This document shows, piece after piece, positions 42,340 to 44,354 of a DNA stretch of 64,000 bases. Every line of letters begins with the position of its first letter. The stretch's first letter is position 1. The translations under genes and the position numbers were made by a program. The stretch is from Paracoccaceae bacterium. GTDB taxonomy: Bacteria > Pseudomonadota > Alphaproteobacteria > Rhodobacterales > Rhodobacteraceae. The notes beneath the pieces are model-generated. The model did no database searches and was not told where the DNA came from. It saw nothing but the letters and a program-made list of their open reading frames with translations. Location of the stretch: NCBI GenBank assembly GCA_016124615.1, contig WGNF01000014.1, positions 40,932-104,931 of the forward strand. The letters run 5' to 3'.

Positions 42340-42374
42340 GGGGCCTAAGGGGTTGGGAAGGCTGGGAAATCGGG

Positions 42375-42415
42375 GCACCGATTTTACACCGTTTTTGCAC
42401 CGATTTGGCACCGAT
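42375..42415. repeat. Four in-phase 11-bp tandem repeats
   Basis: GCACCGATTTT / ACACCGTTTTT / GCACCGATTTG / GCACCGAT. Confidence 0.75.
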
Positions 42416-42607
42416 GGGAGGCGGGGTTTGGTGGGGGCGGACTTGTAGGGTGGCCGTGCGGACGCCCTTGGGCCGACACACTAGGAACGGGTTGTCCTTC
42501 CTGTCTTTCAGTCAGGCTGGAACGCTCGGAACAGTTTTACGAATTTTCTCTTGGACATGCCAAGAAAGGGTGGAATAGTATAGTAGGGGAATTTTTTCGA
42601 GTGACGC

Positions 42608-43198
42608 ATGGCTATCCCAAGATTTGCAGAACACGGTGCATTGCCGGCGTTTATTGAAGGTAACCCAACGGCCATTATTGCGCGCTCTCCTTACTTGGCG
42701 AGCATGTATGAATTTGTTGAGAGGTTTTGCACGTCCCCGCACCGGGCCAAGTTATTGCAAGGATTTAACGAATATCGCAAGCATTTGCACAAGGCGGGGT
42801 TCGTCTCGGGGTTTCAATGGCTGGATGGCAGTTTTATTGAGGACGTTGAGGTTACGCAAAAGCGAAATCCAAACGACATTGATGTTGTAACTCTATTTAA
42901 CCGGCCACTGAAATATCAGGTTGAGCCCTCCAAATGGGTTTCAGACTACGAAGGTTATCTTTTTAAAGGGTACTTCGACACGCGACTTATGAAGCCAAAG
43001 TTTAAATGTGATACCTATGGAGTTGACCTTGATGCAGGGCAGCGCGCTCTAATACGGGGCACAACGTATTGGTTTGGCTTATTTAGCGACATGCGCGGAT
43101 CGCTGGCCAAGAAAGGTATCGTTGAAATTCCCCTAGCTACAGATCTTATGGAGTTCTCTGCAATTGATCAGGTGATAGGGGGCAGGTTTAATGTCTGA
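42608..43198 (+). CDS. Pol-beta superfamily nucleotidyltransferase-like protein (DUF6932-like)
   Basis: QWLDGSF...PNDIDVV (hGS...DxD) plus a distal Asp in CDTYGVD; about 45-50% GC. Confidence 0.75.
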   Translation: MAIPRFAEHGALPAFIEGNPTAIIARSPYLASMYEFVERFCTSPHRAKLLQGFNEYRKHLHKAGFVSGFQWLDGSFIEDVEVTQKRNPNDIDVVTLFNRPLKYQVEPSKWVSDYEGYLFKGYFDTRLMKPKFKCDTYGVDLDAGQRALIRGTTYWFGLFSDMRGSLAKKGIVEIPLATDLMEFSAIDQVIGGRFNV

Positions 43199-44147
43199 CC
43201 TTCAGAGGATCGCCGACCTCCAGCGCCAAAAGTTGGAGCTTGGGGCGTTGATCAGAGACGCCGATGCAGACGGAGACATCGTAGGAAAATTGAATTTCGG
43301 GGCGCGCCTTGAGATGGTTGCCGATGAGCTGGCAGCCTTGAAGGCGAGGGATGCCAAAGTCGGAGAAGTTGCCGTCTTATTCGATGGCGCCCCCGTGAGC
43401 GGGACCAGCGCCATAGATGCTTCCTTCGCGGCTCAAGCTCTTACTCATTTCCAAAGAGTAATAACATGCCTGTTTGCATCTAACTTGAGGGGCCAGCTCG
43501 CCTCTCGTGGGAAAATTAGAGGGTCGAGTCTGGCGGGCTTGAATATCCGCGAATTGGCGACCGGATCGTTTGGCTTCATTCTTGAGGAGAAAGATGCGCG
43601 GCAGTCGAGCGCAATAAAGACCCCAATTAGAGAGTCACTTGAGGAAGCTGCCGCATTGTTTGAGGAGTTTACTCAAGAAAATGATGATAACTTCCTTATC
43701 GAAGTGGATGAAATCGATCCGCGCGTCTTCTTGGCTTTAGCGAAATTCTTTCGGCATCTCGAAAAGAACTACGCGACGCTTAAGACGAATTTTCCCGATA
43801 AACTCTATTCCTTCGACCACGCGGGCATTGAGCGTGCATTTAAGAGAATTTCTGCTACGCATGTCAAGATAGAGCCCGTATTGTGGACCGGTACATTGGT
43901 TGGTTTGTCTCCAATTAAACGAACTTTTGATTTTAAACGCGATGGGGGAGATGAGATTTTATCTGGAAAATTTAGTCATCAGGTCAGCCAAGACTATCTT
44001 GAAAGAATTGAAAACGATAACGGGATTACTTTGGGAGATAGGTTTGATGCCAAGATTGAAATTGGCACCATCAGAAAACCTGACGGAACGATCAGCGTGA
44101 CCTATACGGTCATTGACTTATCTGAATCCGCATCGGGACGCATGTGA
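43191..44147 (+). CDS. Uncharacterised protein coupled to the nucleotidyltransferase
   Basis: 318-aa ORF, AT-rich codons, 8-bp overlap with the upstream stop; N-terminal amphipathic helices, FDGAPVSG...GSFGFILEE, beta-rich C-terminus. Confidence 0.8.
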   Translation: MSDLQRIADLQRQKLELGALIRDADADGDIVGKLNFGARLEMVADELAALKARDAKVGEVAVLFDGAPVSGTSAIDASFAAQALTHFQRVITCLFASNLRGQLASRGKIRGSSLAGLNIRELATGSFGFILEEKDARQSSAIKTPIRESLEEAAALFEEFTQENDDNFLIEVDEIDPRVFLALAKFFRHLEKNYATLKTNFPDKLYSFDHAGIERAFKRISATHVKIEPVLWTGTLVGLSPIKRTFDFKRDGGDEILSGKFSHQVSQDYLERIENDNGITLGDRFDAKIEIGTIRKPDGTISVTYTVIDLSESASGRM

Positions 44148-44248
44148 GCCGTATACCGGCACCCTGCTAATCTTCTAGTAGGTCGACCACTGTCCCCTCC
44201 CGTCTTGCCCGATTTCCGACACGCCTGAGATAACTGACACCCCCTTGC

Positions 44249-44307
44249 CCTACGGCTTGCGCCTTCGGGCAACGGCCCGCGCGGTCTGCCACGGGCAGAC
44301 CGCTTTT
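44249..44307. repeat. Palindromic intergenic element/terminator between the cassette and truB
   Basis: TTGCGCC-TTCG-GGCAA hairpin, then the perfect 10-bp stem GCGGTCTGCC-ACG-GGCAGACCGC followed by TTTT. Confidence 0.6.
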
Positions 44308-44354
44308 GCGGGTCGGGCGCCCGTTGGTCGGGGAGGTGGCGGGTCTTCCCGGCG

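Follow-up and report, generated by a model that had tools for sequence, protein, structure and literature searches.

The subject of this analysis is a two-gene cassette in a window of 64,000 nt (the whole stretch of DNA analyzed) from a Paracoccaceae bacterium (GCA_016124615.1, contig WGNF01000014.1, positions 40,932–104,931, forward strand). The cassette lies between kbl and tdh upstream and a convergent truB gene downstream, and consists of two open reading frames (ORFs) on the plus strand: gene A (positions 42608–43198 of the window, 196 aa), which encodes a nucleotidyltransferase of the DUF6932 family, and gene B (positions 43191–44147, 318 aa), which encodes a partner protein with a predicted oligonucleotide/oligosaccharide-binding (OB) fold at its C-terminus. 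The two genes overlap by 8 nt (positions 43191–43198, plus strand; ATGTCTGA), with the start of B located within the last codons and the stop codon of A, which implies translational coupling. The GC content of the cassette was 48.0%, with a minimum of 34% over 100 nt, compared with 67.6% in the rest of the window, and the cassette was the most AT-rich 1540-nt stretch of the entire window. The GC content at third codon positions was 0.49 for A and 0.52 for B, compared with 0.88 for the adjacent tdh gene. A consensus scan placed a candidate sigma-70-like promoter (TTGGACA ... TAGTAT/TATAGT; 9 of 12 matches) at positions 42551–42584 on the plus strand, with its predicted hexamers approximately 25–55 nt ahead of the ATG of A. 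No mobility gene was found in the cassette or among its immediate neighbors. In these respects, the locus agreed with the original prediction made from its sequence, which had described two overlapping ORFs of low GC content, an AT-rich promoter region, and the absence of a mobility gene.

The whole operon is contained within an AT-rich tract (48% GC) at positions 42480–44190 (plus strand). In three genomes of the same genus, tdh and truB adjoin one another, and the 105–300 bp that separate them contain no comparable genes; the tract is therefore an insertion. Its edges showed no evident target-site duplication. A fourth congener (G006) carries a different insert of approximately 1.2 kb in the same gap (locus L083, about 270–1500), indicating that the tdh–truB site is variable and a local hotspot of insertion. 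Only one of seven genomes of the genus contained a DUF6932 gene; it was encoded on another contig, and the tdh–truB site of that genome was empty. The 1.7-kb tract was thus acquired horizontally and represents a strain-specific foreign insertion.

Gene A (plus strand) matched the Pfam family DUF6932 (PF22014) with an E-value of 3.3e−33 and a score of 115.5 bits (cut-off, 27). The alignment spanned positions 1–141 of the 142 of the model, which bore out the earlier description of the protein as DUF6932-like. It also matched phrog_9194 (E-value 3e−29). The catalytic-type residues are G74-S75 (positions 42827–42832), D90 (42875–42877), D92 (42881–42883), and D135 (43010–43012). In 50 long-form homologs, G74-S75, D90, D92, and K169 were invariant and D135 nearly so, and all of these residues were also retained in the short forms of approximately 150 aa. 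The conservation of the GS-x14-DxD motif with a third aspartate points to an intact Pol-beta nucleotidyltransferase site; the original prediction had recognized the GS, DxD, and distal aspartate correctly, but had given the spacing as x13 rather than x14. The AlphaFold2 model of A (predicted local distance difference test [pLDDT] 95.3) placed G74-S75, D90, D92, and D135 on strands. When the model was compared with solved structures using Foldseek, no close relative was found; the best matches, themselves weak, were the MNT antitoxins of HEPN–MNT pairs (7ae2_B, 5yep_A, and 8xeh_E), together with weak matches to a Sulfolobus nucleotidyltransferase, FAM46/TENT5, CdnC, and aminoglycoside nucleotidyltransferases. 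All of these E-values were 0.01 or worse, and nucleotidyltransferases were the only consistent class among them. Judged by its residues and predicted fold, A is a catalytically intact, minimal Pol-beta-fold nucleotidyltransferase.

Gene B (plus strand) had no match in Pfam, NCBIfam, or PADLOC, and its only profile match was to phrog_18731, a family with no assigned function (2e−31). When 1.84 billion representative proteins were searched with a profile, relatives of B were found in 2,072 clusters at 50% identity, 768 of them at E-value ≤1e−30; the best 150 of these clusters were approximately 300–330 aa in length, with the exception of two short sequences, and contained no domain fusions. When 76 members of the B family were searched against Pfam, nothing was found beyond weak, coiled-coil-type noise. 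Profile searches of A and of B against all PDB chain sequences likewise gave nothing meaningful. In the AlphaFold2 model of B (pLDDT 90.2, predicted template modeling score 0.84), three parts could be distinguished, all encoded on the plus strand. Residues 3–54 (positions 43197–43352; pLDDT 86–98) form a coiled-coil-like antiparallel helical hairpin, residues 59–221 (positions 43365–43853) form a mixed alpha/beta middle domain of unassigned fold, and residues 224–312 (positions 43860–44126) form a barrel of five strands in which a helix separates strand 3 from strand 4. Neither the helical hairpin nor the middle domain had a Foldseek match among the solved structures in the PDB. Meanwhile, most of the top 50 PDB matches, and all of the best-scoring ones, were OB domains (E-values 5e−3 to 0.12, probability up to approximately 1.0); these included OB-B of the telomerase protein Teb1, bacterial and mitochondrial single-stranded DNA-binding proteins (SSBs), CspA, and the anticodon-binding domain of lysyl-tRNA synthetase. 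On the basis of the model, the C-terminus of B is an OB fold.

Conservation in B was assessed over the alignment of the 76 sequences. The invariant positions were F64, G66, F79, G125-S-F-G-F-x-L-E-E133, and G259, of which the stretch 125–133 forms a hairpin in the middle domain (positions 43563–43589, plus strand). R39, R178, R219, and F246 occurred in more than 90% of the sequences, and R215, R244, and Y305 in 75–84%; R178, R215, and R219 belong to the middle domain, and the conserved residues of the barrel include G234, R244, F246, and Y305. These arginines and the aromatic residues of the barrel would fit the binding of single-stranded nucleic acid. Together, the alignment and the AlphaFold2 model confirmed the N-terminal helices, the FxGxPV...GSFGFxLEE core, and the OB-like C-terminal barrel that had been proposed from the sequence. 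Among predicted viral structures, B had full-length matches to a Siphoviridae protein annotated as “DUF6575 domain-containing protein” (E-value 1.3e−12, 297 columns) and to a protein of Leptospira phage LE1 (E-value 2.9e−8). DUF6575 has been listed among new defense domains (Vassallo et al. 2022). Membership of B in this family was not supported by sequence, as none of the 76 B-family members matched the Pfam model of DUF6575 at E-values up to 1, and the likeness is structural only.

The pair corresponds, remotely, to a candidate phage-defense system that has already been catalogued. A matched the PADLOC model PDC-M63A (PDLC04744) with an E-value of 4.2e−15, and the gene order of the window is that of PDC-M63, with B immediately following A in the same orientation. 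PDC-M63 is the cassette FAM_00167>>FAM_00523 of Payne et al. (bioRxiv 10.1101/2024.01.29.577857), who listed 145 candidates of this kind, all untested, on the basis of genes that lie inside BREX, DISARM, and type I restriction–modification (RM) loci. The B protein of the window did not match any of the six PDC-M63B models at E-values up to 1, which means that the system would go uncalled by PADLOC in the window; among its 76 relatives, these models gave 11 weak matches. A random sample of genomes contained two canonical PDC-M63 pairs, L096 (E-values of 1.6e−63 for A and 1.5e−154 for B) and L112 (2.9e−38 and 2.9e−44, respectively). When the B-family profile of the window was aligned with the B protein of L112 using hhalign, 227 collinear columns were matched with a probability of 95.2% and an E-value of 2.9e−8, and G66, G125-S126, R178, G234, and Y305 were common to both B subtypes. 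In both subtypes, a DUF6932-type nucleotidyltransferase is followed on the same strand by a protein of approximately 310 aa that ends in an OB-like barrel, and both occur in prophages and defense loci. The subtypes differ in that the A protein of the window is long (196 aa, compared with approximately 150 aa in the two canonical pairs), with most of the extra residues near the N-terminus and after the DxD strand, and in that GSFGFxLEE, which is invariant in the subtype of the window, is reduced to G-S in canonical PDC-M63B. As judged from these sequence comparisons, the pair is a divergent subtype of the candidate PDC-M63 that is half-detected by current PADLOC models, and B is a remote homolog of PDC-M63B. 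The suggestion that the system was undescribed was therefore not upheld. Our literature search found no paper naming DUF6932 or PF22014. A possible link between B and the PADLOC family PDC-M32A, indicated by weak matches in 13 of the 76 members, was dropped after hhalign against a real PDC-M32A protein gave a probability of 1.3%. As a separate observation on PDC-M32A, positions 262–361 of its model matched many ORFs of 150–200 aa in unrelated genomes, suggesting that the PDC-M32A protein ends in an SSB-like domain.

A and B were almost always found together. A scan of one genome per prokaryotic species for relatives of B gave 78 loci, spanning Alpha-, Beta-, and Gammaproteobacteria, Acidobacteriota, Planctomycetota, Bacteroidota, a cyanobacterium, Leptospira, and Methanomicrobia. 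At 73 of them, a homolog of A immediately preceded B in the same orientation, and four of the other five were cut by a contig end; in other words, A was present at 73 of the 74 genome loci with room for it. All 31 IMG/VR viral contigs that carried B also carried A upstream. Thus, the co-occurrence of the two genes, which had been put forward as a check on the pairing, was borne out at 104 of 105 loci with room. The junctions between the stop of A and the start of B were −8, −4, or −1 in most related loci. The pairwise identities of A and of B were correlated (r = 0.90; Mantel test, 0 of 2,000 permutations), with B diverging faster (mean identity 33%, vs 41.5% for A). No conserved third gene was found, the largest cluster of neighbors being a resolvase at six loci. 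From the side of A, a DUF6932 gene was present in 22 of 400 randomly drawn Pseudomonadota genomes, and a partner of the B kind (approximately 300–320 aa) followed 15 of these 22 genes, including 13 of the 14 that encode the long form. One short-form gene (L097) instead preceded an HTH–peptidase M78 (RmrA-like) protein. Pairs of DUF6932 with Xre-HTH/HTH-M78 proteins resemble the cassette in that the same enzyme family is upstream in an overlapping pair, but the partner there is a DNA-binding/peptidase regulator, whereas the B protein of the window has an OB fold and no helix–turn–helix. The occurrence of DUF6932 with other partners suggests that the enzyme is the constant working part. These results show that the two genes have been passed on together in bacteria, archaea, and prophages alike, and the overlap, the linkage, and the empty sites in congeners support the proposed horizontally acquired, tightly coupled two-gene module.

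Exceptions to the pairing were few. B was intact at four loci in which A was frameshifted, truncated, or absent (L037, L071, L076, and L069), three of which are from metagenome-assembled genomes (MAGs), where frameshifts can be errors, and one of which (L076) is from an isolate genome; A was intact, with all of its catalytic residues, at one locus where B was absent (L109). Neither gene looks lethal alone, as far as these few cases, several of them from MAGs, allow. L069 (1333–6954, a Planctomycetota MAG) was the only locus with room upstream and no A; there, an intact B follows an Mrr-type nuclease corresponding to the PADLOC single-gene candidate PDC-S02 (9e−149), next to an SNF2-like helicase of 1105 aa.

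Small nucleotidyltransferases of the Pol-beta fold are used in several two-gene conflict systems, and the arrangement of the cassette recalls that of the type VII toxin–antitoxin pair MNT–HEPN, in which the nucleotidyltransferase gene comes first, the partner gene second, and the genes overlap. The window likewise contains a small Pol-beta nucleotidyltransferase gene first, overlapping the gene for a larger partner, and the solved folds closest to A are the MNT antitoxins (7ae2 and 5yep). By analogy, A could nucleotidylylate B, for example at Ser126 or Tyr305, and thereby silence or activate a harmful nucleic-acid-binding protein, in which case B would be the effector and A the antitoxin or regulator. 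The retention of G125-S126 and Y305 even in canonical PDC-M63B is consistent with such a modification. Nevertheless, we regard this explanation as unlikely. The fold match of A to MNT is weak (E-value 1e−2, template modeling score about 0.3), and A has extra helices and belongs to another Pfam family. B is not a HEPN protein, has no conserved histidine or Rx4–6H motif, and carries no recognizable toxic activity. The intact B genes that lack a working A, although three of the four are from MAGs, are, furthermore, hard to reconcile with a toxin that depends on A.

A second alternative follows the logic of CBASS (the cyclic-oligonucleotide-based anti-phage signaling system) or of Hailong, in which a nucleotidyltransferase makes oligo-dA that restrains its partner. 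A would make a nucleotide or short oligonucleotide, and the OB fold of B would hold this ligand; infection would shift the amount of the ligand and, with it, the state of B. The apparently intact active site of A would permit such synthesis, and an OB fold with conserved aromatic residues and arginines would suit a single-stranded ligand. We consider this explanation very improbable, because A is minimal (150–196 aa) and lacks the C-terminal lobe of cGAS/DncV-like enzymes, and because it matched neither SMODS, CD-NTase, nor any other signaling model in PADLOC. B, in turn, lacks any output domain (membrane, nuclease, TIR, SAVED, or other) through which a signal could act, and the SMODS, CD-NTase, SAVED, TIR, and transmembrane features of CBASS were found in neither protein. 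The cassette shares with AbiEii/MenT (DUF1814) the idea of a two-gene conflict module in which a Pol-beta-fold enzyme is the effector that arrests growth. It differs in that A has no match to AbiEii/DUF1814 in Pfam or PADLOC and is about half the size of those proteins, and in that the partner is neither AbiEi nor MenA. Pfam, PADLOC, and the inspection of conserved residues thus agreed with the original prediction that the pair is not a HEPN–MNT, CBASS, AbiE, or MenAT system.

The genomic positions of the relatives are suggestive. In lambdoid prophages of the E. coli type (L166–L168), the pair is located directly after the cI repressor gene (HTH_3 + Peptidase_S24), on the same strand and before N. 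On the known lambda map, this is the rexA–rexB position, which is transcribed in lysogens, and it provides strong positional evidence for an exclusion function expressed in the lysogen. The likeness to rexA–rexB is one of position alone; no similarity in sequence or fold was detected, and B is soluble, unlike the membrane protein RexB. In a Rac-like prophage, the pair follows the repressor gene, opposite ydaS/ydaT, and the Phytobacter pair has the lysis cassette on one side and the terminase gene on the other. In other genomes, the neighbors were of defense or mobile-element types: the pair adjoins a type I RM system and a TIR protein in Shimia, reverse transcriptases and a resolvase in Azospirillum and Dyella, and, in Paraburkholderia (L119/L120, 697–7125), a protein of 2142 aa with a weak NACHT match upstream and a phage-type integrase downstream. 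The cassette was more AT-rich than its flanks at 67 of 70 loci, the median difference being 8.4 points. A separate observation concerns the 309-aa B variant of L166–L168, which is listed in 1,356 blocks of the assembly collection, although no more than 8 of 5,426 complete E. coli genomes carry it; other enterobacteria or metagenomes must therefore contain it frequently.

The 135 ORFs that directly adjoin the pair at 68 loci, surveyed with no matched control, included strong matches to DpdF, DrmA/D, BrxH, PsyrT, and mad2, each at two or three loci, together with five integrases, four resolvases, and many ordinary metabolic genes. We read this census only as an association with defense that is clear but partial. 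Relatives were often located in prophage immunity regions and in defense islands, the latter in partial agreement with the original prediction. Meanwhile, a megablast search of GenBank phage records gave no match, and matches in plasmids numbered only five.

From this evidence, the pair is quite probably a conflict module of the PDC-M63 type. Several observations weigh against this interpretation. The pair is solitary among housekeeping genes in the window and in Methanogenium, and in a Hymenobacter MAG (L125, 7414–8981; also L126) it lies within the S10 ribosomal-protein operon, between rpsJ and rplC on the same strand; such solitary placements make the association with defense islands a partial one. 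tblastn found no relative among 50,697 GenBank phage records. On the protein side, the OB-fold matches of B are weak by E-value (≥5e−3), and B has no recognizable effector, sensor, or antitoxin domain. The sole published test of PDC-M63AB, the deletion of the pair from its native prophage in E. coli NILS69 followed by challenge with 10 phages, showed no effect. In PD-lambda-2, moreover, the roles of toxin and antitoxin were found to be the opposite of those expected. The negative result in NILS69 and this reversal of roles call for caution.

Some of the same observations would be explained if the pair had no immune function and were instead a mobile accessory pair for the nucleic-acid metabolism or regulation of phages and mobile elements (for example, in end-tailing or repair), or a selfish addiction cassette without benefit to the host. 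Many copies, including that of the window, stand alone in housekeeping loci, the single defense test was negative, and the proteins that resemble B in structure over its full length come from phages and have no assigned function. However, the slot after cI, co-oriented with the repressor gene, is a classic one for exclusion genes expressed in the lysogen and not for lytic functions. The source family of PDC-M63 was also defined by its embedding in BREX, DISARM, and type I RM loci, and the same neighbors were found here. A non-immune role is very unlikely in our judgment.

The best explanation overall, which we hold to be somewhat likely, is that the cassette is an acquired DUF6932/OB-fold operon, a divergent subtype of PDC-M63, that serves as a conflict module, acting either against phages, including by abortive infection, or in a manner resembling a toxin–antitoxin system. 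Under this explanation, A would be the enzymatic effector, transferring a nucleotide onto a nucleic-acid or protein target. Because A has no nucleic-acid-binding domain of its own, B is proposed as its obligatory partner, whose OB fold would bind single-stranded nucleic acid; B might either target A to its substrate or restrain A until infection is sensed. This division of labor, with A as the effector and B as the targeting or gating partner, is put forward tentatively, with less than even confidence. It is suggested by the constancy of A across partner types, by the absence of a substrate-binding domain in A and of a recognizable catalytic or output domain in B, and by the finding that neither gene looks lethal alone. 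A more novel interpretation, which is conceivable but doubtful, is a mechanistically new immunity of prophages and islands that amounts to a “split terminal transferase,” with neither protein active alone. The coiled-coil/OB partner B would recognize a single-stranded nucleic acid that is specific to infection, or a phage protein attached to such a nucleic acid, and would present the substrate to A or be charged by A on Ser126. The tailing or capping of the substrate by A might then stop phage replication or host translation.

A DUF6932 gene is present in about 5% of the sampled Pseudomonadota genomes, mostly with this partner, and the B family comprises approximately 2,000 clusters at 50% identity and reaches the archaea without a Pfam entry or a solved structure. 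The substrate of the enzyme, once found, would extend the range of uses of the minimal nucleotidyltransferase fold in conflicts among microbes and would also give a function to a large “dark” protein family. The instance in the window adds a subtype and a genomic context to PDC-M63 rather than a new kind of system. For the host genome, the outcome is modest, namely a strain-specific foreign insertion that current PADLOC models half-detect.

No known RNA family was found in or around the cassette, and no tRNA gene was found nearby. Repeats flank the cassette, as the original prediction had noted, but they could not be retained as its ends: both are dispersed repeats of the host, rich in GC and situated beyond the limits of the AT-rich tract. 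The left repeat (approximately positions 42347–42415; no strand assigned) contains three 11-nt GCACCGATTTT-like units and has at least 30 copies in the genome of the window, and its copies are also abundant in the congeners G004 and G005. The family to which it belongs consists of dispersed, GC-rich, intergenic sequences of 70–100 nt built from GCACCGATTTT-like units, and from its sequence it looks like a repetitive extragenic palindrome or a miniature inverted-repeat transposable element. The right repeat (approximately positions 44200–44320; no strand assigned) is about 110–120 nt in length and has three further copies in the genome. It contains a GC-rich hairpin at positions 44281–44303, formed by the palindrome GCGGTCTGCC-ACG-GGCAGACCGC and followed by TTTT, which may be a terminator shared by the cassette and the convergent truB gene.

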